Shown here: one piece after another, positions 11,665 through 25,094 of the stretch
How positions within the stretch are numbered: position 1 is the stretch's first letter
How the letters are laid out: every line of letters begins with the position of its first letter
Source: Flavobacteriaceae bacterium
Lineage (GTDB): Bacteria > Bacteroidota > Bacteroidia > Flavobacteriales > Flavobacteriaceae
Length of the DNA: 62,501 nt
Assembly: GCA_036396455.1 (NCBI GenBank)
Contig: DASWKU010000318.1
Coordinates: forward strand, 1 to 62,501
Direction: 5' to 3'
Made by a program: the position numbers and the translations under genes
The notes under the pieces: generated by a model
The model's input: only the letters and a program-made list of their open reading frames with translations
Databases searched by the model: none
What the model was told of the DNA's origin: nothing

Positions 11665-13365
11665 ATGAAAAAAATTAAATTATTAATAACTGTAGCGATT
11701 ATAATTTTAGGATTTGCATCGTGTTCAAAGGACTATTTAGATGTTAGTCCGGAAAATGTAATATCTGAAGACAATTTAGATTTGGAACAGTTGGTGGTCA
11801 GTGCTTATAGTAGTTTGGATTATAGGTTCAACACAGGTGAGTTTAGAGATAACTGGCCATTTGATCATGCACCTTCCAATTGGTGTTTTTCAGATATAAG
11901 AAGTGGAGATGCGTACAAAGGTGGTGGTGGAGTAGGTGACAACCCAGGCGGCGGTATGCACGCTCTTGAAATTCACCAAGTTTTTCCATCTTCAGAAAAT
12001 GTGTATAATCTTTGGCGAGCTGTATATTTTGCAATTTATCGTATAAATAGTACTGTAACAGCCTTAACTAATAGCACAGATTTTGCAAATAAAGATTTAA
12101 GAATTGCTGAATTAAAAGTTTTACGTGCACATTTCTATTTTGAGTTGATGAAAAACTTTGGGTCTTTCGTCTATATTGATGAAAATACACCAGTAGCAAA
12201 TGTGCCTAATATTGAAAACTCATTTGATGAAACTTTTTTATGGGGTAAAATCGAAGGTGATTTAAATGCGGCAATAACTGTGTTACCTGATACTCAACCA
12301 GAATTGGGAAGGGTCAATAAACTTGTAGCCTATGCATTCTTAGCAAAAGCCAAGTTATTTCAAGGCCAATGGGCTGATGCTATAACCAACGCCGATAGAG
12401 TAATTGCAGGACCATATAGATTGGTTGATGATTTAGAAAAATTATATTCAACACCTGGTTACGGAAATGCAGAAAACGTATTCGCCATTCAATATTCTAT
12501 TGATGATGGTTCTGAATTTGGAAACCTTGATTTTGGTAACTTATTAAATTCACCGGATTCGCCATCTGACGACACCAACCATCCTTATTTAAATGGGGAT
12601 GATTTTGATAAACCTTCACAAAATATTGTAAATGCCTTTAAAGTTGATGGGAATGGTTTACCATTATTGGATACTTATAATGCGTCTGATTTAGCACCAA
12701 GAGATACAGCAACCCCTGTAGATACAAGGTTGGATCATGCTATTGGCCGCCCAGGAATAACTTGGAAACATTGGGCACCAATGCCAATGCAGGATAACTG
12801 GAATAGAGATATAGCAACTTATGGGTATTATGTAAGAAAGAAAAATCAAATTGACCCTAATTCGAATTTGAGAGCTTCCGGAGGATTTCCTTGGGCTAAA
12901 GGAGCATTGGATTGGGCAATCATTAAATTTAGTGATGTACTATTATGGAAAGCCGAGGCATCCATTGAGTTAAATGACTTATCTACAGGAATGAGTATAA
13001 TAAATCAAATTCGTTCAAGGGCTAAAACCTCCCCCTATGTTTATGATTTTAATAATCCTGCAATGGATGCTTCAAATTATTCAATTGGACTGTATCCAAC
13101 AAGTGGAATTACCCAAGATTACGCAAGAAAAGCTTTAAGGATGGAAAGAAGGTTGGAACTCAATAACGAGGGACATCATTTTTATGATTTGGTAAGATGG
13201 GGCATTGCAGCCAATTGGATTAATGATTACATGTTAACCGAAAGCGGAAAAAGAAGCTACTATAGTGGAGCCTCCTTTACTGCTGACCGAGATGAGTATC
13301 TTCCAATACCACAAATAGAAATTGATGCTACAGGGGGTGTTTATAAACAACGTTCGGGTTATTAA
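11665..13365 (+). CDS. susD: SusD/RagB nutrient-binding lipoprotein
   Basis: Lipobox ASC, LRAHFYF and ERRLEL..EGHHFYDLVRWG motifs; follows susC. Confidence 0.95.
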   Translation: MKKIKLLITVAIIILGFASCSKDYLDVSPENVISEDNLDLEQLVVSAYSSLDYRFNTGEFRDNWPFDHAPSNWCFSDIRSGDAYKGGGGVGDNPGGGMHALEIHQVFPSSENVYNLWRAVYFAIYRINSTVTALTNSTDFANKDLRIAELKVLRAHFYFELMKNFGSFVYIDENTPVANVPNIENSFDETFLWGKIEGDLNAAITVLPDTQPELGRVNKLVAYAFLAKAKLFQGQWADAITNADRVIAGPYRLVDDLEKLYSTPGYGNAENVFAIQYSIDDGSEFGNLDFGNLLNSPDSPSDDTNHPYLNGDDFDKPSQNIVNAFKVDGNGLPLLDTYNASDLAPRDTATPVDTRLDHAIGRPGITWKHWAPMPMQDNWNRDIATYGYYVRKKNQIDPNSNLRASGGFPWAKGALDWAIIKFSDVLLWKAEASIELNDLSTGMSIINQIRSRAKTSPYVYDFNNPAMDASNYSIGLYPTSGITQDYARKALRMERRLELNNEGHHFYDLVRWGIAANWINDYMLTESGKRSYYSGASFTADRDEYLPIPQIEIDATGGVYKQRSGY

Positions 13366-13409
13366 AATAAAAAACTATTAAAAATTAAAACATATCTAAA
13401 ATTATTAAG

Positions 13410-15239
13410 ATGAAAAACATATCTAAAATTATTGAACTGATTCCCTTCCTAGTTTTAGGAATAGTAATCACATTTATTTCTGGTTGTGATGATGAAATTA
13501 AATTTCAAGATTTAGCACCAGATTATACATATTCAATTGTTAGGTCATTCGAAGTTAATGGAGAGGCAGCTACAATAAACCATACAAATGGTACAATATT
13601 TCATTCTTTGCCAGCTGGTTCAGATTTAAGCAATGTAACAGTGGTTATCACTTTACCTGAAGGAGCTACTATTGACCCTTCTTCTGGAAGTACCGTAGAT
13701 TTTACTTCAGGCCCAGTAATATTCACTGTTAGTAATAATGATGTTTCAAGAGAATATACAGCAACAATAAATGCTTTTGGTGATCCAATGATTATGTCAT
13801 TTTCAATTGGAGAAAATGAAGGAACAATAGACCAAGTGAATGGAACCATTGCGGTAACAGTAGGCAGTCAGGAAAATATCATGACCTTATCACCGCTGTT
13901 TACAATTCCTGGTGGGACCACTGCAAGTCCAGCATCTGGTGTGGCTCAAGATTTTTCTTCACCGGTAAAATATACCATAACCTCTAATGATGGTTTTACT
14001 GGCAAGTCTTATTTTGTAACAGTAACTCAATTGGCATCTCCGTTAATAAGCTCCTTTGCTACTTCTGAAGATGTGTGTGCTGTAACTGGTACGATAAATA
14101 ATGATTTATCTACTATTTCGGTTATTCTTCCAGCAGGTTCTGATTTGACATCAATAGCACCAATAATTTCACTTAATGATGAATTGACTGTTTCACCTGA
14201 ATCTGGAGTTGCACAAGACTTTAGTCAAGGGCCTGTAACTTATGCAGTTACAAATCTTGAAAATTTAACAAAAGAATATCAAGTATCAATTAGTGCCGCA
14301 GATTCAACTCAAAAAGTAGTCTTTTTAGGAGAAGCAGATTGTATAAATACATTGGCTGATGACGATGCCAAATCAGCAGCGGAATATTTAAAAGCCCAGT
14401 ATCCTGATGATTTTACATATATTAAAATTGCAAATGTAACAGAAGCTGCCTTGGCAAACACCAATGTAGTTATGTTGTATTATTTAACTCCTCTTACTAG
14501 TGGGACTCAATATTTTGCAACAGATACTAATGTGATGACTTTATTGCCAGCAGAATTGCAACCAGGAGCTCCACAAGCAATTGCCTTAACTAATTGGTAT
14601 AAAAACGGTGGAAACATATTTTTAGCTGGAGATCCAACTTCTTTTATTCATGTATTGGGACGTATGCCAGCTGATTACTCTCAACCTCGTGGATTAGGAA
14701 ACTATCGCTATACAGAATTTGGCTGTTCCGGTGTTGGTGGTTGTGTAGATAGAGATAGACCAGCAGATGATGTATGGGGGTTAGGTGTAAGAGATTCTAA
14801 TAATTCAGGAAATCGTAGAGGTCATCCAATTTTTAATGGTTTGACTTTTAATGGTGACGGAGAACTTCCTCTATATAATGCCGGAACTCGTGAAGCAAGA
14901 TTAATATGGTGGCAACATATGGACGGTATTTTATCACCGGGATGTTGTGGTCAAGATACTGCCTTATTATTTGAACAAACCGTGAATGCTGTTAAACTAG
15001 GAACCTTACGTTGGATTGGTGATGCTTTTGGGTATGGCGCTATTGAATTTTTACCAACAAATGGTGGACTGGATGGAAATTTTGATTCAAGTATCGGAAC
15101 AGATTTTGCTGGTCGAATCATTTCACTTGAGAACACTATTATTGGATATGAATTTAATTCTAACGATGGAAGGGTTAATGATTTTCAAAGTAATATTGAA
15201 TTACTGACCTCAAATATCATTGACTATCTAAATAATTAA
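13410..15239 (+). CDS. Surface glycan-binding lipoprotein (repeated Ig-like modules + DUF4960-like domain)
   Basis: Lipobox SGC; three repeats ending P.SG..(Q/V)DF(T/S)..PV.(Y/F); C-terminal domain with DDDAKSAA; SusE position. Confidence 0.75.
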   Translation: MKNISKIIELIPFLVLGIVITFISGCDDEIKFQDLAPDYTYSIVRSFEVNGEAATINHTNGTIFHSLPAGSDLSNVTVVITLPEGATIDPSSGSTVDFTSGPVIFTVSNNDVSREYTATINAFGDPMIMSFSIGENEGTIDQVNGTIAVTVGSQENIMTLSPLFTIPGGTTASPASGVAQDFSSPVKYTITSNDGFTGKSYFVTVTQLASPLISSFATSEDVCAVTGTINNDLSTISVILPAGSDLTSIAPIISLNDELTVSPESGVAQDFSQGPVTYAVTNLENLTKEYQVSISAADSTQKVVFLGEADCINTLADDDAKSAAEYLKAQYPDDFTYIKIANVTEAALANTNVVMLYYLTPLTSGTQYFATDTNVMTLLPAELQPGAPQAIALTNWYKNGGNIFLAGDPTSFIHVLGRMPADYSQPRGLGNYRYTEFGCSGVGGCVDRDRPADDVWGLGVRDSNNSGNRRGHPIFNGLTFNGDGELPLYNAGTREARLIWWQHMDGILSPGCCGQDTALLFEQTVNAVKLGTLRWIGDAFGYGAIEFLPTNGGLDGNFDSSIGTDFAGRIISLENTIIGYEFNSNDGRVNDFQSNIELLTSNIIDYLNN

Positions 15240-15252
15240 TAAACTGATAATT

Positions 15253-16359
15253 ATGAATAAAGCAGTTATAAAAAATATTTTCGCGATTGTAGTTCTATTC
15301 ATAGGACTGCAATCTTGCGATGATAGGGAAAATTTTACCGATAGTCCATCGGTTCTAGATATAGTTGAAAGTGTATCAATAAATGGCAAAAATGCCGAGA
15401 TTGACCATTTAGCCGGAACAATAAACGTAAGTTTAGTAGGGAATACTAATTTGGCTTCAGTAATATTTGAAGCTACGGTTCCTGAGGGTGCTACCATTAG
15501 CCCAGAAAGTGGTTCAACATTAGATTTAACAAGTTCTGTAACCGTTGTTGTAAACAATGGTGTTAGCGACAGGTTTTATACTATAAATGTGACATTACTT
15601 CCATCTAAAATTGCGTTTTTAGGAGATGGAGCTGCAATTGCTGATATTGCCGATGATGATGTCAAAGCAGCAGCACAGTGGACACAATCTACATACGGCG
15701 GTGACTTTGTCTATATTTCTTATGACAATTTATCTGATGAAACTTTAGATGGAGTAAATGTTATTTTATATGTACACGATCAAGTAGGCTCATCGGCACA
15801 GCCAGCAGCTTTATTGGCTAATTTAAATGTGCTATCTAAATTTTATGTACAAGGAGGAAAAATAGTTGCAGGCTTATTAGGTACTGGTTTGGTTGAGGAA
15901 TTAGGAAGAGACACTTCCGGGTTGAGAAATATTATTGGTACTGGACCTGGTGGGCCCAATCCAGATACTTGGGGTGTTGGATTTACAGGTTCTTCTTTGG
16001 CAAATAATATTTCCAATGGCTTAACATTTTACGAACCAAATAAGGCTTTTGTTATTGATGGAGGATATAAAGAGGACCATAACGCATTGTGGAATTTAGA
16101 TCCAATTGATAGCCCAAAATATGCCAACTTCAATTCATTATATAATGCAGAACCAATAGCAGCATGGGATTGGGCCGTAGATGGTCAAGGATTTGCAGGA
16201 ATTGTAGTTTGGAAACCTTGGGATCGGTTTAAGGGATATATGATTACAATTGGCATTGGTGGAATGGAGTGGAGTATGAATGATGCAAGAAACAATCCTT
16301 ATTTGAGTAATGTCCAATTGATTTATAAAAATTCAATTGATTATTTAGCGTCATTATAA
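15253..16359 (+). CDS. Surface glycan-binding lipoprotein (Ig-like + DUF4960-like), paralogue of the preceding gene
   Basis: Lipobox QSC; shares PEGATI.P.SGST.D.TS and FLG.....ADDD.K.AA with 13410-15239. Confidence 0.75.
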   Translation: MNKAVIKNIFAIVVLFIGLQSCDDRENFTDSPSVLDIVESVSINGKNAEIDHLAGTINVSLVGNTNLASVIFEATVPEGATISPESGSTLDLTSSVTVVVNNGVSDRFYTINVTLLPSKIAFLGDGAAIADIADDDVKAAAQWTQSTYGGDFVYISYDNLSDETLDGVNVILYVHDQVGSSAQPAALLANLNVLSKFYVQGGKIVAGLLGTGLVEELGRDTSGLRNIIGTGPGGPNPDTWGVGFTGSSLANNISNGLTFYEPNKAFVIDGGYKEDHNALWNLDPIDSPKYANFNSLYNAEPIAAWDWAVDGQGFAGIVVWKPWDRFKGYMITIGIGGMEWSMNDARNNPYLSNVQLIYKNSIDYLASL

Positions 16360-16398
16360 ATTAAAGTTAGAAGTGAATTGTTTGAGTTAGTTTTAAAA

Positions 16399-16434
16399 TT
16401 CCGGAAGTCATTATTCACTTAATGTCTTCCGGAA
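16399..16434 (+). terminator. Intergenic hairpin (terminator or mRNA-stabilising element)
   Basis: TTCCGGAAG-T-CATTA...TAATG-T-CTTCCGGAA inverted repeat between the last two PUL genes. Confidence 0.55.
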
Positions 16435-16476
16435 AAATTAATTGTGAAATTTCAATGACAACAAAACAATGAAAAC

Positions 16477-18726
16477 ATGCATTATAATTATAAAATCTTA
16501 CTGTTTTTTATCTTAATTAGTAGTTTATTACAAGCTCAAAATCTGAAAATTGATTTTGATGGTGAAAACTGGTGGAATACTTTTCAAAAAGACCATCAAG
16601 TGCATCTTTATAATTCACCATACAGTCTAGAATCTGAAAACCCACATTACCTGTGGAAACCAATCGGTTCAGGAGGAGGTTCGCTCCTTTTCGATGGATA
16701 TTCTACTTATATGGAGATTGAAGATGTTAAGCTTTCTAAAACTTTTGATTTAAGTTTCTGGATAGCTCCAAGAGCTTTTGACAGTGCCATAGATAATAAA
16801 TTAGCGGCTATTATAGATTATTTTTCTAAAAAGGATTCAATTGGGTTTAAAGTGGGTTTGCTAAAACATGGTCAATTGGTCATTCAATACGATATTGGAA
16901 ATGATAAGAAACGTTTTATGAACGATCAATTATTTCTACAAAAAAACAGATGGAATTTCGTTAATATTTTACAGGACTCGCAGACTTTAAAGGTGCTATT
17001 AAACGGTAAAGAATTGTTGAAAGAGCCTTTAGATAGTTCAGTGGTTGATAAACAATTTAGTGGTAATGATTATGTTTTAACTATTGGCAGAAATTCCAAT
17101 GCCAGTGGTTTTGGTAGAAAATTTAAGTTCAATATGATTAGTGGAATTATCGATGATATTTCCATTAAACCTTTAAATGATTCCAATAAGATAGTACTTG
17201 ACCTCGATTCACGTCTACGGCAAGATATTACTAAACATTTAAGACTTGATTATACCAAGTTCGACGATGTGTTTAGGCCTAAATACCATGCCATTGCACC
17301 AGCACATTGGATGAATGAACCTCATGCGCCATTATATTATAATGGCAAATATCATCTTTTTTATCAACACAATCCTTTTGGACCATATTGGGAACAAATT
17401 CATTGGGGGCATTGGGTAAGTGACGATATGGTTCATTGGAAGCATGCAGATATTGCTTTGGCTCCAGAAAAAGGAACTGTAGATCCTGATGGTATTTGGT
17501 CTGGTTCGGCTTATATAGGGCAAGATAATACACCCTTGCTTTTCTACACAGCTGGAAACGATGCTAAAAAAGAAAATCAATATACATCAATAGCATACCC
17601 TAAAGACCAGAGCGATAAGAATCTAATCTCTTGGGAAAAATCTGGAATTATAGTCGAAAAACCATCAGAGTATTTACATAGGGAATTTCGCGATCCTTTT
17701 GTTTTCAAAATAGATTCCAAGTATTACATGATTGTTGGTAGTGGCATTGCTGAAAAAGGAGGAACGGCTGCTTTGTTTGAATCTGAAGATGCCAAAAACT
17801 GGAACTATCTTCATCCATTTTATCAAACCGATATTAAAAAGTATCCATTTATGGGAGGTGTTTGGGAGTTGCCTGTTTTTCTCCCTTTGCCTAACGAGGA
17901 TGGTACAAGCACCAATAAATTTATTTTTATGGTATTGCCACTCAGGGATGAAGCTGATGTGGAAGTATTTTATTGGGTTGGAGCTTTTGACAAGGAAGCA
18001 AAAAAGTTTATACCAGACCAAGAAAAACCATCCCTAATGGACTATGGAGATTTTGGGTTTACAGGACAAAGTGGTCTTGTGGACCCTAAAACCAATAGAT
18101 CGATAGTCTTTTCTATAGCTCAAGGAAAGTTTGGGAATATCGACACCTATAATATGGGATGGGCTCATAATGCTGGTTTACCAATTAGCCTGTGGCTTGG
18201 AAAGAGCGATGAACTCAATTTTGCACCTATTAATGAACTTAAATCGTTAAGGGGAAAACCTTTGATAATCTGTGAAAATTGTGAAGTTTCAAAACTTAAA
18301 AAGGATTTAAAAGAAATAAAGGGAGATCAACTTGAGATTATTTTAGAGTTTAAATCAGGAAAGGATAAAAAAGGAATTATTGTTAGAAAGTCTAATTCTG
18401 GAAACCCTCAAGCTATGATTTATTTTGACCCTACAACAAATTCTGTGGTTTTTGATAAAATACAAGATAATCCAGAACGAAAATTCACAGCAATTAAAGC
18501 ACCAGTTTCAAATACTAAAGATATCAAGCTTCATATTTATTTAGATAAATCGATGATTGAAATTTATATCAATAATCAAGTATCCATTACAGATCGAATT
18601 TATTTTACAGATACCGATGCAAAATACATAGAATTAATGGGGTTTGAAGATGGTATCAAGATAAAAAAACTCCATATCTGGCCTATGAACTCGATTGATT
18701 GGGAATATGTGGAATCATCAAAATAG
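16477..18726 (+). CDS. LamG-domain GH32, endo-inulinase/cycloinulo-oligosaccharide fructanotransferase-like
   Basis: Signal peptide, LamG region, HWMNEPHAP..QIHWGHW, WSGS, FRDP and WELP. Confidence 0.88.
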   Translation: MHYNYKILLFFILISSLLQAQNLKIDFDGENWWNTFQKDHQVHLYNSPYSLESENPHYLWKPIGSGGGSLLFDGYSTYMEIEDVKLSKTFDLSFWIAPRAFDSAIDNKLAAIIDYFSKKDSIGFKVGLLKHGQLVIQYDIGNDKKRFMNDQLFLQKNRWNFVNILQDSQTLKVLLNGKELLKEPLDSSVVDKQFSGNDYVLTIGRNSNASGFGRKFKFNMISGIIDDISIKPLNDSNKIVLDLDSRLRQDITKHLRLDYTKFDDVFRPKYHAIAPAHWMNEPHAPLYYNGKYHLFYQHNPFGPYWEQIHWGHWVSDDMVHWKHADIALAPEKGTVDPDGIWSGSAYIGQDNTPLLFYTAGNDAKKENQYTSIAYPKDQSDKNLISWEKSGIIVEKPSEYLHREFRDPFVFKIDSKYYMIVGSGIAEKGGTAALFESEDAKNWNYLHPFYQTDIKKYPFMGGVWELPVFLPLPNEDGTSTNKFIFMVLPLRDEADVEVFYWVGAFDKEAKKFIPDQEKPSLMDYGDFGFTGQSGLVDPKTNRSIVFSIAQGKFGNIDTYNMGWAHNAGLPISLWLGKSDELNFAPINELKSLRGKPLIICENCEVSKLKKDLKEIKGDQLEIILEFKSGKDKKGIIVRKSNSGNPQAMIYFDPTTNSVVFDKIQDNPERKFTAIKAPVSNTKDIKLHIYLDKSMIEIYINNQVSITDRIYFTDTDAKYIELMGFEDGIKIKKLHIWPMNSIDWEYVESSK

Positions 18727-19253: not shown

Positions 19254-22200
19254 ATGGCGTTATTCCAAACCTCCGTATTAAAAACATATCTCACGCAACA
19301 GGATCATGCTTTGGTAGGGCTAGCTTATAAAAAATACACCACCTATTTTCACAATGCGACCATACAAGAGAATATCAAAAATTCCAAAGAGGAACAATTT
19401 CAAGCTACGTTTTTAATAGAACTTTTTGTAAACATTCTGGATTACACCCTTAATCCCAATCCTAATTTCAACCTCACTACCGAGTTCAAAAATCAAACCG
19501 GTGCGGGGAAAGCAGACGGAGCTATTCTAAAAGGGAATACAGCCATTGGGGTCATAGAATTAAAAGGGACCAACACCAAGGATTTAGAAAGTATCCGAAA
19601 ACAAGCTTTTGACTATAAAGCCAATCAAAAAGGTTGTGTATATGTGGTGACATCGAATTTTGAGAAGTTGCGATTTTATATTAATGATGCCACCGAGTTT
19701 TTGGAGTTCAACCTGTTTCAGTTGGCACCGGAAGAATTCGCCTTGCTATATCTGTGCCTGCAAAAAGACAACATCCATAATAACCTTGCCCTAACGATCA
19801 AAGAAGCCTCTTTGGTGGTTGAAGATAACATTACCAAACAGTTTTATAACGATTACTCGGTTTTTAAACGCGAACTCTTTAGGGATTTGGTAAAACGCAA
19901 TGCCAAACGTATGAAAATTGAATCGGTCGTTGCGAGCGAAGTGCGGCAATCTCATGATGATAGCAACACTAACGAGAACAAAGCACTCGAAAAAAACGTC
20001 AAACTATCCCTATTCAAAAAATCGCAAAAGCTCATAGACCGCTTTCTGTTCATTTTCTTTGCCGAAGACAGGGGCCTTTTACCACCAAACAGTACCATAC
20101 AAATTTTGGATAAGTGGAAAGCCGACATCGATTTTGGTGATGAACGCCCATTGTACAACCTCTTTAAACAGTACTTCCATTTCTTGGATTCGGGCAGAAA
20201 GGGCACCACCTCAAGGGCAGAAATCTACGCTTACAATGGTGGATTGTTTAACCCCGATGCCATTCTGGACACTCTCGAAATTGATGATGATTTACTCTAT
20301 AAACATACCTACAAACTCGCCAAATACGATTTTAGCAGTCAGGTGGATGTCAATATTTTAGGGCATATCTTTGAAAACTCACTCAACGAGATTGAAAGCG
20401 TGAATGCCGAAATTGAAGGCGGTGCCTTTGATAAGCAAACAAGCAAACGTAAAAAGGATGGTGTGTTCTACACCCCAAAATACATTACCAAATACATCGT
20501 AGAACATACCGTTGGCAAGCTCTGCCAAGAGAAAAAAGAAGCCCTAGGCTTTAAGGAGGAAGCCTATTTTGAGGTCAAAAAGGGCACGCACCAAAACACC
20601 AAAAAGCAACTGTTGGGGGTGTTGGATTCCTACCGTGAATGGCTCCTGCAAATCACCATTTGCGACCCCGCTTGTGGCTCTGGTGCATTCTTAAACCAAG
20701 CGTTGGACTTTCTCATAAAAGAGCACCGTTACATAGACGAGCTTAAAGCCAAGGTCACGGGGGGCAGCCTTATTTTAAGCGATATAGAAAACACCATATT
20801 GGAAAACAACATCTATGGGGTTGACCTCAATGAGGAAAGTGTAGAAATCGCCAAACTTTCCCTTTGGTTACGTACTGCACAACCTCGCCGTAAACTCAAC
20901 GATCTGAGCAACAACATTAAATGTGGCAACTCTTTAATAAACGACAAAAAAGTAGCCGGCGATAAAGCTTTCAATTGGGAAACGGAGTTTCCGCATCTCT
21001 TTAAAGAAAAGGACAAAAAGGCGTACCACATTACCACGTCCGTACACGATAGCAGGACTTCTGAACGCATGAAAACCTACAAGGTTCGCGAACGTAGAGC
21101 CATGGGTACCAATCCCTATCCGAATGTACACTATTTTACAACGGACGATAATTTGGTCATTACCCAAACCCTGGCCACTATTGTAGAGGAGGATCGGCTC
21201 CAGTTATTGGCATACAATATTTGTGGCGACCATATCCATTTACTATTGGTCTGCGAACTTGATGAGGTACCGGGGATCATGCAAAAAATAAAGTCGGTTA
21301 CTTCCAAGATGGTGCACAGAGTGCGTGGTGCTACAAGGGAGCACGCTCCCTTGTCGAATACGCCCTTGTGGCAACAAAAGTACAGTGCGCCGAAAGAGAT
21401 TACCAGCACCGAGCAGTTGCACAATACCCTAAAGTATATACAAAGCAACCGGCAAAAGCACCAGTTACCACCACATAGCAAACAATTACAAGACCTTATC
21501 GATACTATGTGCTGTAGCGTAGATGATGCCTTTAAGCCAGAATACCTTGGCGGCTTTGATGTGGTGATTGGGAATCCGCCTTATGTAAGAGCCGAACTTC
21601 TTACCGAATATTTAAGATATTTTGAAAAGAACTATAAAGTTTATCACTCCGCAAGTGACCTATTTGCCTATTTCTATGAATTAGGTTCAAAAATTATAAA
21701 CAAAAAAGGTTTAATGGGTTATATATCCAATACTTTCGATAAAACAACAGCAGGAAAAGTATTAAGAGACTATTTAGCTACAAGAACTAATCTAAAACAA
21801 TACATAGACTTTACAGAAGTTAAAATATTTGAAGGAGCAACTACATATCCAGTTATAATTATACTTCAAAATTATTATAATAACAAGAGTAAATTTAAGT
21901 ATATTAAAATTCCAAAATCTTCACAAAACAGGGTAATAGATATTGATATTGAAAATAAAATTGAAGTTTTACAAGACTCTTTGGATTCCAATAGTTGGTC
22001 CTTATCTTCAGTTGGGAAAGCTAAAATTTTAGATAAGATTTCTCAATTTTCTAATTTAAAAGAAACCTATGGGAAATGCTATTATGGCGTTAAAACAGCT
22101 TTAAATGATGCTTTTATTGTTAAAAATAATTGGCCTTATTCAGAGCATATAAAACCGATTTTGGAAGGGAAGGAAATTAAAAAATGGAACGTTCAGAAAG

Positions 22201-23042
22201 CAGAACAAAAGCTAATTCTTTTTAAAAGTAAATGGACTGATGAGTCTTATCCTGAAAAGTCAACAGAAGAAGAAAAACTTAACGCTTTAGTTCGTGATTT
22301 TCCAGAAATTTTGAACCACTTAATGCCATACAAAGAAAGCGCGATTAAACGATATGACAAAGGGGATTATTGGTGGGAATTAAGAAATTGTGCTTATTAT
22401 GACTTGTTTGATAAGCCTAAAATTATATTCCCCAATCTTCAAAATACCAATAAATTCTGTTTTGATGCAAAAGGTACTTTCGTTAATGCCCCAGCTGTAT
22501 TCTTACCAGTAGATAATAAAGCTTTATTCTGTATTCTTAATTCTAAAGTGGTTTGGGAGTTTCTTAAATCGATATGTGTTGTACGAAGCGGTGGGTACAT
22601 TGAAGTAAAACCTCAATATTTCGAACAAATCCCTATTCCTGAACTAAAAAACGAAAAGCAATTTGAGAGTAAAGCAAATAACGTTATTGGATTTATGAAT
22701 GACTTTCAACTTTTAGATTCAAGATTTCAGAATTACATTTCGACGAAGTTTCAAATCGAAAAACCAACCCGCAAACTTGAAAACTGGCACGAGCTGGACT
22801 TTGCAGACTTTATTAAAGAACTCAACAAGGCCATTAAAAAAGCAGGAGGCACAGCACTCACCAAAAAAGACGAGTTTGAGTGGTTGGAACTGTTTGAGGA
22901 TAATAAGAAAAAAGCCCAATCGCTAAAGATCCAAATTGCCCAAACAGAAACAGAAATAGATCAAATGGTGTATGGGCTGTATGGGTTGACAGAAGAAGAA
23001 ATTGCCATTGTTGAGGGGCAAGGGAGTTATAAGGGACTCTAG
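19254..23042 (+). CDS. Type IIG (Eco57I-like) restriction-modification enzyme, N6-adenine MTase, with inserted HUH transposase domain
   Basis: N-terminal PD-(D/E)XK-like ADG..IELKG; YAYNGGLF; GVFYTP; motif I DPACGSGAF; motif IV GNPPY; TaqI-C-like TRD (PKIIFPN). Confidence 0.92.
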   Translation: MALFQTSVLKTYLTQQDHALVGLAYKKYTTYFHNATIQENIKNSKEEQFQATFLIELFVNILDYTLNPNPNFNLTTEFKNQTGAGKADGAILKGNTAIGVIELKGTNTKDLESIRKQAFDYKANQKGCVYVVTSNFEKLRFYINDATEFLEFNLFQLAPEEFALLYLCLQKDNIHNNLALTIKEASLVVEDNITKQFYNDYSVFKRELFRDLVKRNAKRMKIESVVASEVRQSHDDSNTNENKALEKNVKLSLFKKSQKLIDRFLFIFFAEDRGLLPPNSTIQILDKWKADIDFGDERPLYNLFKQYFHFLDSGRKGTTSRAEIYAYNGGLFNPDAILDTLEIDDDLLYKHTYKLAKYDFSSQVDVNILGHIFENSLNEIESVNAEIEGGAFDKQTSKRKKDGVFYTPKYITKYIVEHTVGKLCQEKKEALGFKEEAYFEVKKGTHQNTKKQLLGVLDSYREWLLQITICDPACGSGAFLNQALDFLIKEHRYIDELKAKVTGGSLILSDIENTILENNIYGVDLNEESVEIAKLSLWLRTAQPRRKLNDLSNNIKCGNSLINDKKVAGDKAFNWETEFPHLFKEKDKKAYHITTSVHDSRTSERMKTYKVRERRAMGTNPYPNVHYFTTDDNLVITQTLATIVEEDRLQLLAYNICGDHIHLLLVCELDEVPGIMQKIKSVTSKMVHRVRGATREHAPLSNTPLWQQKYSAPKEITSTEQLHNTLKYIQSNRQKHQLPPHSKQLQDLIDTMCCSVDDAFKPEYLGGFDVVIGNPPYVRAELLTEYLRYFEKNYKVYHSASDLFAYFYELGSKIINKKGLMGYISNTFDKTTAGKVLRDYLATRTNLKQYIDFTEVKIFEGATTYPVIIILQNYYNNKSKFKYIKIPKSSQNRVIDIDIENKIEVLQDSLDSNSWSLSSVGKAKILDKISQFSNLKETYGKCYYGVKTALNDAFIVKNNWPYSEHIKPILEGKEIKKWNVQKAEQKLILFKSKWTDESYPEKSTEEEKLNALVRDFPEILNHLMPYKESAIKRYDKGDYWWELRNCAYYDLFDKPKIIFPNLQNTNKFCFDAKGTFVNAPAVFLPVDNKALFCILNSKVVWEFLKSICVVRSGGYIEVKPQYFEQIPIPELKNEKQFESKANNVIGFMNDFQLLDSRFQNYISTKFQIEKPTRKLENWHELDFADFIKELNKAIKKAGGTALTKKDEFEWLELFEDNKKKAQSLKIQIAQTETEIDQMVYGLYGLTEEEIAIVEGQGSYKGL
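19926..19953 (+). repeat. In-frame REP-like palindromic element (reads VVASEVRQS)
   Basis: GTCGTTGCGAGCGAAGTGCGGCAATCTC resembles the recalled GTCATTGCGAGCGAAGCG..GCAATC repeat type and lies in a non-conserved loop. Confidence 0.55.
21009..21548 (+). mobile_element. IS200/RAYT-like Y1 HUH transposase domain embedded in the R-M ORF
   Basis: YHIT, AYNICGDHIHLLL (HUH at 21231-21239), IKSVTSK, LWQQKY and KYIQSN (Tyr at 21435-21437). It separates FNWETEFPHLFKE from GGFDVVIGNPPY, which are normally adjacent. Boundaries are approximate. Confidence 0.85.
21333..21354. repeat. REP-like palindrome within the HUH domain
   Basis: ACAAGGGAGC-AC-GCTCCCTTGT, a perfect 10-bp stem. Confidence 0.85.
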
Positions 23043-23086
23043 TCCCTTGAGGGGGCAAGGGAGGTTCAAGGGACTCTAGTCCCTTG
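23011..23086. repeat. Tandem pair of ~36-bp units, each with a REP-like palindrome
   Basis: AAGGGACT-CT-AGTCCCTT at 23031-23048 (contains the R-M stop codon) and CAAGGGACT-CT-AGTCCCTTG at 23067-23086. Each is preceded by TTGAG(4-5)CAAGGGAG. Confidence 0.9.
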
Positions 23087-23092
23087 TAAAAA

Positions 23093-24034
23093 CTAGTGCT
23101 TATTGGGTTCATGTTTTAAAGATGCGACAATGCCTGTAAGTAGGGCCAGGGCAATAAAGGCCAAAGATATCCATTCCGGAAATTTATAATGGTGTGCCAG
23201 AATAAGCTTGACGCCCACAAAGCATAAAATGGCCACCAGACTGTATTTTAAATAGCCAAAGCGGTCTAGCATGTTGGCCAGAAAGAAATACATGGACCGT
23301 AAACCCAATATGGCAAAAATGTTGGAACTGAACACCAGAAAGGGATCGGAGGTTATGGCCAATATGGCGGGTACGCTGTCTAGGGCAAAAAGGATATCGG
23401 TAAACTCAATAACCACTAGAGCCATAAACAATGGAGTGGCAGCGGTAATATGGTGCATTTTTATAAAGAATTTTTGCCCCTGCATGTGTGAGGTTATGGG
23501 CATTACCTTTCTTAAATTTCTGTAAATAAAGGATGTTTTTGGGTTAAACTTCTCTGCCTTTGAAACCAACATCCTATATGCTGTAAAAAGCAAGAAAGCA
23601 CCAAACAGATAGGTTGCAAAGCTAAATTTTTTGATGAGGACCACTCCAAAAAATATCATTAAGGCCCTAAAGACGATAGCACCCAAAATCCCCCAGAACA
23701 GGACCCGGTGCTGGTATTTTTGTGGAATATTAAAGGAGCTAAAAATAACCGCGATCACAAAGATATTGTCGATACTTAATGACAGCTCTATCAAATATCC
23801 GGTAATATATTTAATGGTGGCATCCATTGGTGTCAACGCATTGACATTATCTATCCTACCGGTATTGTAGAGCCAATAAATGACAGTAGAGAACAAGAAG
23901 GACAAACTAATCCATAGGCCTGTCCAAAAAGAGGCTTCCCTTACACTTATTTTATGGGGGTTTTTGTTAAAGACCCCTAAATCCAACGCCAAAAAAATAA
24001 GTATTCCCAAAAGGAACAGGCCCCAAACCATCAT
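23093..24034 (-). CDS. TerC/Alx family membrane protein
   Basis: GYLIELSLSIDNIFV, QHRVLFWGILGA, DILFALDSVPA and SNIFAILGLRS. Likely start is the ATG at 24034; the ORF track gives 24067. Confidence 0.93.
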   Translation of the reverse strand: MMVWGLFLLGILIFLALDLGVFNKNPHKISVREASFWTGLWISLSFLFSTVIYWLYNTGRIDNVNALTPMDATIKYITGYLIELSLSIDNIFVIAVIFSSFNIPQKYQHRVLFWGILGAIVFRALMIFFGVVLIKKFSFATYLFGAFLLFTAYRMLVSKAEKFNPKTSFIYRNLRKVMPITSHMQGQKFFIKMHHITAATPLFMALVVIEFTDILFALDSVPAILAITSDPFLVFSSNIFAILGLRSMYFFLANMLDRFGYLKYSLVAILCFVGVKLILAHHYKFPEWISLAFIALALLTGIVASLKHEPNKH

Positions 24035-24163
24035 GTTATTTAAAAATAATTTTGCGAAAATAAACATTTGGTGAATGCAAAAAAAAAGTAATGAGTTAAA
24101 TTAGGGCTTAATAAGATAATATATTTTAAATTCTTTAACCCCTTTCTGTAACTTTGTACCTTT

Positions 24164-24388
24164 TTAATGTACAAAATGTTGCATGCCAAATTCTAGCCTA
24201 AAAAGATTTGTATTTATTAGTGTAAAGTATTCAAATTTTAGAGCAACGATCCAATCATTTGCAGATTTGTTAAACCCTTTTGAATAGATGTGATTGTTGT
24301 GCTTGACCAAGCGTTCATCCATATCATGGGTCTCCCCGACATAATATGTGCCGATGGACCTGCTGTAAATGATATACAGAAAATGCAT
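24164..24388 (-). pseudogene. Truncated duplicate of the GIY-YIG nuclease gene
   Basis: The first 53 aa are nearly identical to 24683-24964; similarity stops after ALKFE (~24230). Confidence 0.85.
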
Positions 24389-24400
24389 TTTATAAGTGTA

Positions 24401-24578
24401 TGGGTGCACGACAAAAATCACTTTCCTGATATTTCATAAAAAAGAACGCTGATAACGCTGATTTTTATGATTTACGCAGTTTGTATCAGTGTCCCGAGGA
24501 ATCGGGACTGCCCGATCAGTGCCTTCTGCGTTCCATTATTTGCAACATAGATAAAAAAGAAGATATTTGTCGTACACC
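24401..24578. mobile_element. MITE-like non-coding insertion
   Basis: Absent from the otherwise matching spacer at 24965-24990. Imperfect TIRs GGTGCACGACAAAAATC and reverse-complement GGTGTACGACAAATATC. Flanked by the direct repeat AAGTGTA (24394-24400, 24579-24585). Confidence 0.75.
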
Positions 24579-24637
24579 AAGTGTATTTAAAACCAAAAAA
24601 CCCGAACGATTTGTCCGTCCCGAAGCGTCGGGATTTA

Positions 24638-24682
24638 TGGTGGTGCCTCCAGCTCCGAAGCGTCGGAGGAACCAGGGGGCAC
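24638..24682 (-). pseudogene. Duplicated 3' half of tRNA-Phe with a hairpin substituted in the T-arm
   Basis: Minus strand GTGCCCCCTGGTTC-[CTCCGACGCTTCGGAG]-CTGGAGGCACCACCA versus tRNA GTGTCCCTGGTTC-GATTC-CTGGAGGCACCACCA. Confidence 0.88.
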
Positions 24683-24964
24683 TCATTTTTGAGAGAGCAG
24701 ATCTTCCAATATCGATGGCTTTTGGATGATCCTGTTGATGAAGGTTTTGCTTTTCATCCTTTTCACAAATCTTTCGAGATAAAGGGCATCTTCTCTGGAC
24801 CTGCACTCAAATTTTAGAGCAATGATCCAATCATTTGCAGATTTGGTAAACCCTTTTGAATAGATGTGATTGTTGTGTTTGGCCAGACGTTCATCCATGT
24901 CATGGGTCTCCCCGACATAATATGTGCCGATGGATCTGCTGTAAATGATATACAGAAAATGCAT
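24683..24964 (-). CDS. Small GIY-YIG nuclease family protein
   Basis: FLYIIYS....YYVGET.D..ERL.KHN and A..LE.FVK.MKS, a typical stand-alone GIY-YIG pattern. Confidence 0.88.
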   Translation of the reverse strand: MHFLYIIYSRSIGTYYVGETHDMDERLAKHNNHIYSKGFTKSANDWIIALKFECRSREDALYLERFVKRMKSKTFINRIIQKPSILEDLLSQK

Positions 24965-25018
24965 TTTATAAGTGTATTTAAAACCAAAAAACCCGAACGA
25001 TTTGTCCGGGTCTTATTA

Positions 25019-25094
25019 TGGTGGTGCCTCCAGGAATCGAACCAGGGACACAAGGATTTTCAGTCCTTTGCTCTACCAACTGAGCTAAGGCACC
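25019..25094 (-). tRNA. tRNA-Phe(GAA)
   Basis: GGTGCCTTAGCTCAGTTGGTAGAGCAAAGGACTGAAAATCCTTGTGTCCCTGGTTCGATTCCTGGAGGCACCACCA folds as a cloverleaf with anticodon GAA and encoded CCA. Confidence 0.98.

Follow-up and report, generated by a model that had tools for sequence, protein, structure and literature searches.

A RAYT-like HUH transposase domain nested in frame within a Type IIG restriction-modification gene

A transposase domain inside a restriction-modification gene

The DNA examined here, called the window throughout, is a stretch of 62,501 nucleotides (contig DASWKU010000318.1, positions 1 to 62,501, assembly GCA_036396455.1) from a bacterium of the family Flavobacteriaceae. On its forward strand, at 19254-23042, lies a single open reading frame (ORF) of 1262 amino acids (aa), open throughout with no internal stop, that encodes a Type IIG restriction-modification (R-M) enzyme. 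Nested in frame within it, just before the NPPY motif and between the halves of the methylase that carry the S-adenosylmethionine (SAM)-binding and the NPPY motifs, is a transposase domain of the Y1/HUH type. It resembles the REP-associated tyrosine transposases (RAYTs; REP, repetitive extragenic palindrome), and hairpins of one family stand inside it and at the end of the gene. An earlier note, made from the letters of the sequence alone, had proposed such a fusion with the insert at ~21009-21548. The fusion is borne out, with the insert now placed at 21003-21548 (aa 584-765). The features of the locus are these:

19254..23042, forward strand: Type IIG R-M ORF with nested HUH domain, 1262 aa (ORF call, Pfam, PADLOC)
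19515..19565, forward strand: nuclease motif D88...E102-L-K104, PD-(D/E)xK-type (sequence; weak MmeI_N match)
19926..19952, forward strand: in-frame copy, encoding VVASEVRQS, of a second, unrelated REP-like repeat with 5 copies in the assembly (repeat search)
20664..20684, forward strand: methyltransferase motif DPACGSG, aa 471-477 (sequence; invariant in 71 of 71 rows)
21003..21548, forward strand: nested Y1/HUH (RAYT-like) transposase domain, aa 584-765, without its own start or stop (Pfam, NCBIfam, empty-allele alignment, structure)
21231..21239, forward strand: HUH motif H660-I-H662 (DHIH), kept in 114 and 113 of 114 inserts
21333..21354, forward strand: cognate hairpin inside the insert, in frame, encoding TREHAPL, with a 9-bp stem (palindrome search)
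21435..21437, forward strand: predicted catalytic Tyr728 in KYIQSN (YIxxNRxKH motif), kept in 114 of 114 inserts
21573..21584, forward strand: NPPY motif, aa 774-777 (sequence; NPP[YW] in 74 of 74 full-length fused proteins)
21585..22700 (3' limit approximate), forward strand: variable methylase C-half and target-recognition module (TaqI_C match; allele comparison)
23015..23086, no strand assigned: two tandem direct repeats (~35-37 bp), each ending in a hairpin of the cognate family, at 23031-23048 and 23067-23086 (repeat and palindrome search)

The identity of the nested domain rests on profiles, motifs and a predicted fold. Pfam Y1_Tnp (PF01797) matches aa 627-732 with 40.9 bits against a cut-off of 23 (E 2.6e-10). 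Here, the earlier note had suggested searching the protein with Y1_Tnp, Eco57I and N6_Mtase, and all three match. The NCBIfam model for REP-associated tyrosine transposases, NF047646, gives the insert alone 47.3 bits, under its cut-off of 80, and is the better of two transposase matches; the IS200/IS605 model gives 26-31 bits, under a cut-off of 55. All 74 rows of an alignment made mostly of short relatives match NF047646 (best E 1.8e-16), and Tyr728 is invariant in all 74. The motifs that the note had picked out are found as described: DHIH with H660 and H662, LWQ with W706, and KYIQSN with Tyr728. The spacing from HUH to Tyr is 66-68 aa, with W706 between them, compared to typical family medians of 58-67.

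Structure prediction, also suggested in the note, gives the insert a TnpA-like fold. The AlphaFold model has a mean predicted local confidence (pLDDT) of 94.5, and its best Foldseek matches are ISDra2 TnpA, IS608 TnpA and TnpA-REP 4ER8. A 540-aa model of both domains together (pLDDT 78) shows the hairpin-coded loop as disordered, and matches the CamA and BrxX methylases in Foldseek. By these models, the domain would fold independently and leave the methylase unbroken.

The host part of the chain holds a nuclease, an amino-methylase and a specificity domain, the combination by which a Type IIG enzyme is known, with all motifs intact. The PADLOC model REase_MTase_IIG (PDLC03609) matches the 1262-aa protein with E 1.3e-289; in Pfam, the host part is matched by Eco57I, TaqI_C, MmeI_Mtase and N6_Mtase, and weakly by MmeI_N at aa 36-165. 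The three motifs that the note had called intact are present: D88, E102 and K104, which we take to be a nuclease motif of the PD-(D/E)xK type; DPACGSG, presumably the SAM-binding motif; and NPPY, presumably the catalytic motif of an amino-methyltransferase. The SAM motif and NPP[YW] recur in all 74 full-length fused proteins and the nuclease pattern in 68; the six that miss it have the D, and ELK where visible, with variant neighbours or inserted repeat peptides. The fused enzyme probably still methylates and restricts.

Two trivial explanations of the insert fail. It starts with KEKDK and ends with PEYL, and so lacks the ends of an intein, as the note had observed; it has neither a Cys/Ser start nor a His-Asn end, and no Hint match in Pfam or NCBIfam at E 0.1. 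An assembly artefact is ruled out by fused homologues, together with contigs from two public sequencing runs of different studies that cross both junctions (20070-21586, with 4 letter differences, and 20220-21584, with 8), of which either run might be the source sample of the assembly. In four DNA runs, no joint that skips the insert was seen, a null that of course says nothing about the absence of excision; no RNA run was listed among those containing the sequence.

Filled and empty alleles

The fusion is real, widespread but rare. A search with the insert as query returned 226 candidates, of which 138 were long, fused proteins; Eco57I and Y1_Tnp occur together in all 120 long proteins listed. 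Most of the fused loci found in genomes belong to Bacteroidota; Balneolaceae and Neomarinimicrobiota supply one each, and Gastranaerophilales two. Of 400 genomes sampled evenly from the window's family, 58 have the host gene (63 matches). At least 6 of the 63 are fused, five intact (all five long ORFs) and one frameshifted; 28 of the remaining matches read as empty.

Close relatives of the gene mostly lack the domain. The best 120 matches to the upstream host part are 86-94% identical to it, and 119 of these have no Y1_Tnp match. Two, P0208 and P0214, match the window on both sides of the insert, at 92-93% upstream and at 87% and 83% in the downstream variable region, and are therefore the same gene without the insert. 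The alignment with and without the insert, another of the note's suggestions, shows that aa 584-765 are missing from the empty alleles and take the place of two residues there (F.W...F-xx-GGFDVVIGNPPY), a net gain of 180 aa. The site is fixed across hosts 30-94% identical. The spacing at the 5' junction is the same in 38 of 41 readable distant representatives, and two exceptions have hairpin peptides flanking the domain in the loop.

The loop is permissive. Among 116 readable empty alleles of the 119, 79 have a plain 25-aa segment there and 37 a longer one, nearly all made of the peptides of other repeats. The peptide family of the VVASEVRQS repeat is among those that occupy it, in many empty alleles. 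More generally, the R-M family gathers in-frame copies of other repeats (SLRGTKQS, VIASEARQS, SAVE, PPSKGDKG, SAEASAKAG; window 19926-19952 and empty alleles P0125-P0232), many of which sit in the same loop as the insert.

Within the inserts, the residues expected to be catalytic hardly vary. They could be counted in 114 of 121 fused proteins, seven being dropped where the junction motifs were not found. H660 is kept in 114, H662 in 113, W706 in 113 and Y728 in 114; D659 is kept in 113 and R733 in 114. The His and Tyr residues are invariant among inserts only 35-67% identical. At the DNA level, pN is lower than pS (the proportions of nonsynonymous and synonymous differences) in 527 of 528 pairs of 33 copies, the lone exception being one locus fetched twice. 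The corresponding rate ratio, dN/dS, which the note had also proposed to measure, lies at 0.07-0.34 for the most similar pairs that are not identical; in most pairs dS is close to saturation. Neither a missing Y1_Tnp match, nor a singleton, nor residue decay, which the note had named as grounds for doubt, is what was found (40.9 bits; 138 homologues; 114, 113 and 114 of 114).

The insert and its host have different histories. Spearman correlations of pairwise distances, taken over 61 dereplicated proteins of the 74 full-length fusions, are 0.14-0.22 between insert and host and 0.47-0.78 between one host segment and another. The two host ends across the insert correlate at 0.59 and the halves of the insert at 0.68. 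Between insert and downstream module the value is 0.01, which rules out that the two travel together. Forcing the insert alignment onto the host trees costs 532-727 log-likelihood units (lnL) in 30 hand-picked rows. One pair, P0002 and P0100, has host distances of 0.06-0.14 on both sides of an insert distance of 0.47. On the host tree, the five nearest rows of P0001 are all empty alleles; with 108 fused and 119 empty rows, four changes are needed, and since the empties are all kin of the query, gain and loss are not separable there.

The downstream module has its own pattern of exchange. It has a GC content of ~26% at 21600-22200 and differs between alleles by swapping; the metagenome contigs end at 21586, at the NPPY boundary. 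This same boundary serves for swaps in empty alleles as often as in fused ones (4% of 118 fused pairs vs 4% of 1451 pairs at equal distance), so that the idea that the domain drives specificity switching is unsupported.

Relatives of the domain also exist on their own. A search of the full library gave 301 representatives. Among the best 150 of these, 145 were new: 61 tied to this R-M family, 83 short, and one other long protein. Two loci, L029 and L030, are free-standing genes flanked by cognate hairpins, and a third, L032, is free-standing with one hairpin inside; no host-gene homology was found near any of the three. The ends of the free-standing relatives match those of the insert, which therefore amounts to an entire gene that lacks start and stop codons. 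In the tree of the domain, fused forms are scattered among short ones (23 label changes, at least 10 of them forced), though many of the short proteins may be fragments. Remnants resembling the host gene occur at the 5' end of 4 and at the 3' end of 13 of 56 scorable short proteins; with so loose a pattern, and many possible fragments, these do not fix a direction, and the proposal that short relatives escaped from the fusion was set aside. A scan for unrelated host families among the best 150 of 301 covered 12 long representatives, 10 of them Eco57I-type and two with Y1_Tnp only. We infer that the fusion arose once, long ago, and was then passed on by recombination between alleles, with the domain now and then escaping or re-entering.

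The window's assembly (G000) also holds other Y1 genes, at C188:1049-1294 and C222:3665-3910, one with NHIH/YIDLNP (subclass 2.4-like) and one with NHIH/YIHLNP, as well as IS200-like copies on contigs C351, C237 and C76.

Hairpins of one family

Three hairpins of one family lie at the gene. The two at its end are the REP-like palindromes that the earlier note had reported, and the first of the end repeats provides the stop codon of the R-M gene; the third, inside the insert, was not in the note. The pattern CAAGGG-N8-CCCTTG has two matches in the whole assembly (3.7 Mb, 545 contigs), both at the R-M gene; a reversed control pattern has one. All listed copies are likewise at the fused gene in G253, G285, G429 and G433, as in G000. 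No cognate hairpin lies near any of the five other Y1 loci in G000. Association with a specific family of short palindromes is one of the properties by which RAYTs are recognized.

The hairpins are also recorded as peptides. When the pattern was searched across the whole insert, 99 of 114 inserts contained peptides that it encodes, in all three frames and in up to 8 copies. In the host part, cognate hairpins are found at the DNA level in 7 of 27 fused loci vs none of 28 empty ones, and as peptides in 29 of 98 fused vs none of 112 empty proteins. The second repeat family shows the reverse trend (1 of 27 fused vs 9 of 28 empty loci). Further, the variant of the hairpin in the host part is that of the insert in 22 of 26 classable proteins, where 11.2 would be expected by chance. 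Together, distribution and variant match suggest that the domain acts in cis.

The R-M gene is not alone in receiving in-frame insertions: at L124 (G439:C172, 1318-3174) two cognate hairpins stand within an unrelated ORF of 618 aa.

Known systems and competing explanations

Each half of the fusion has well-known relatives. The host resembles Type IIG enzymes (Eco57I/MmeI-like, PDLC03609) in having a nuclease, a helical spacer, a gamma-type amino-methylase and a TaqI_C-like specificity domain in one chain, and in having an exchangeable specificity module; it differs by the 180-aa HUH domain between the SAM-binding and NPPY halves. The insert resembles the REPtrons (RAYT/TnpA-REP), the nearest being TnpA-Y1 subclass 2.4, in its core of HUH, W and Tyr, in its Bacteroidota hosts and in carrying in-frame REP copies between HUH and Tyr, going by the available text of PMC6006769; like them, its free-standing relatives are flanked by their own hairpins. 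Here, however, the transposase is nested within another protein. Membership of subclass 2.4 is ruled out by motifs (NH[IFV]H and YIxNNP there, in the same available text of PMC6006769, vs DH[IMV]H and YIxxNRxKH in the inserts) and by the REP foot GT[AG]G, present in 1 of 91 perfect hairpins. IS200/IS605 TnpA proteins (ISDra2, IS608) are the best matches in the Protein Data Bank by sequence and fold and share the DH[IV]H motif. Nevertheless, an IS200/IS605 insertion with its ends is ruled out, the insert having no subterminal hairpins at the cassette ends (junctions read by eye), a single copy in the assembly, and YIxxN rather than Y...Q.

Inteins with homing endonucleases are likewise inserts that keep the frame and are optional, so that some alleles have them and others do not; they too sit at one fixed position next to a conserved catalytic motif. 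The domain differs in lacking splicing termini, so that it would remain in the mature protein, and in being a transposase acting on single-stranded DNA (ssDNA) rather than a double-strand homing nuclease.

The reading preferred here, held with a probability of about 0.55, is that a permissive loop of the methylase carries a RAYT-like REPtron as a passenger that does not splice, with its hairpins copied mostly nearby and the domain exchanged by allelic recombination. A complete RAYT-like HUH transposase sits in frame in the loop before NPPY and would stay unspliced. This domain is likely to be still nicking its own CAAGGG-N8-CCCTTG hairpins and copying them, for the most part into the gene that holds it; its transfer from one allele to another is likely due to recombination within the conserved flanking motifs. 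The host enzyme is likely under selection, so that only hairpin insertions in frame and in loops would survive. Read from sequence, the domain is probably catalytically active and probably acts in cis, and one chain may restrict, methylate and nick ssDNA. E. coli TnpA-REP is reported to be a monomer (PMC3479197), and it is thus plausible that such a domain could act while fused to another protein.

A bolder explanation is active homing, in which the HUH domain would nick DNA close to the loop and thereby cause its own cassette to be copied into empty alleles, much as with an intein's homing endonuclease but tolerated as a domain rather than spliced. This would account for a site fixed across hosts 30-94% identical, for an insert history decoupled from the host, for invariant catalytic residues and for the mixing of fused and short forms in the tree of the domain (23 changes, of which at least 10 are forced). 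Moreover, over the final 30 nt ahead of the junction, close empties agree with the window at 0.69 and with one another at 0.78. This co-conversion signal is, however, one 30-nt bin; few of the alleles are filled (at least 6 of 63); and the fused loci that were read have no hairpins at their cassette ends. Further, the target-recognition module swaps at the same motif without the domain, and ordinary recombination therefore suffices. We consider homing unlikely, and equally doubtful the new class of homing element that it would imply, an HUH ssDNA transposase targeting one R-M methylase loop, with an intein-like life cycle without splicing. Were homing true, this would be the first RAYT-type gene shown to move itself. 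A little less probable again is domestication for defence, the domain adding a function (such as cleavage of hairpin ssDNA from invaders, or modulation of the enzyme) and being kept by selection on the host. The insert's absence from 119 of the 120 closest alleles argues against this, as do its lack of co-evolution with the host or the specificity module, a frequency of module swaps that is not raised by fusion (4% of 118 fused pairs vs 4% of 1451), and the accumulation of hairpins in the host's own gene. What domestication does explain is purifying selection, a junction register fixed over great divergence, and the retention of the host's nuclease and methylase motifs.

The remaining candidate is an inert relic, a domain dead or silenced in the fusion, with the gene's hairpins placed earlier or by other RAYTs of the genome. 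Further Y1 genes do exist in G000 and G177, broken fused copies are known, and no insert-skipping joint was seen in the four runs. A relic would not be expected to keep Tyr and His invariant at 35-67% identity, nor dN/dS well below 1; the hairpin variants of the host part match the insert's, and the five other Y1 loci of G000 are without a cognate hairpin nearby. This makes a relic quite improbable. The earlier note had left three options side by side. Of these, the selfish domain with an R-M gene as its shelter agrees best with the findings; a domesticated module that has become fixed agrees poorly, with 119 of 120 closest alleles empty and a history decoupled from the host; and a self-mobilising R-M gene is unsupported, as the hairpins do not bracket the gene and none was found upstream of it in the window.

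Several observations weigh against the passenger reading. The proteins used for the conservation counts were picked by their likeness to the insert, and the 119 empties all belong to one clade of close relatives, in which loss of the insert is possible. The ORF is broken, or shorter than 1000 aa, in 7 of 25 non-truncated fused loci, and the two-domain model has a predicted TM-score (pTM) of 0.52. The tree of one host segment is also rejected by the other segments (79-431 lnL: 79-102 among N-terminal parts, 158-431 with the C-terminus), so that the whole gene is a mosaic. P0001 and P0081 are host sisters, with hosts 93% and inserts 50% identical, and an insert tree that unites them is not rejected (approximately unbiased test, p-AU 0.40); a separate acquisition is therefore not supported for this copy. 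As for the hairpins, the peptide patterns were hand-made from the inserts and kinship among the proteins inflates the statistics, so that the p-values are overstated. Hairpins are dispersed between genes in G177, G434 and G436, genomes that hold other Y1 genes; G379, in which the search for Y1_Tnp gave no match, has a single perfect copy; and the window's end hairpins differ in variant from the one inside its insert.

In the literature searched, which covered few subscription papers, no description of this R-M/HUH fusion was found, and it is apparently an undescribed fusion of two known systems. Annotators name it either an R-M enzyme or a transposase. Quentin et al. (2018) threw out unusually long proteins as fusions or annotation errors (available text of PMC6006769), and the words "restriction" and "methyl" occur 0 times in the main text of that paper. 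Known tnpA-REP genes are described as single-copy and vertically inherited, with no evidence of mobility (PMC8266576, 10.1101/2021.07.10.451892); RAYT genes are held to be non-jumping, and why they are retained is an open question there (PMC5581495, PMC8266576, in the text available). The usual description of a RAYT as free-standing and vertically inherited does not apply here, the ORF being nested and discordant with its host gene. This RAYT-like gene occupies a single defined site, where it may be present or absent and can be exchanged, and a methylase loop accepts a whole foreign enzyme. Thus, natural filled and empty alleles that share flanks, with hairpin insertions recorded as peptides, make it possible to test directly whether RAYTs move and how hairpins are copied in vivo.

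The neighbourhood of the gene can be given briefly. Directly upstream, 11665-18726 is likely a fructan utilisation locus, with GH32 by Pfam and what we take, by likeness, to be a SusD-like lipoprotein. Downstream, a TerC-family gene lies at 23093-24067 on the reverse strand, followed at 24164-25094 by two GIY-YIG-like copies (a 171-nt repeat, at 24231 and 24807). An 18-nt repeat (24635, 25016) overlaps the 3' end of tRNA-Phe. Congeners match continuously only from the tRNA onward, which places the R-M gene in a variable region beside tRNA-Phe. A remnant related to aa 170-209 of the R-M protein (67% over 40 aa) occurs twice in the assembly, at 36-158 of the window and at C337:199-321.

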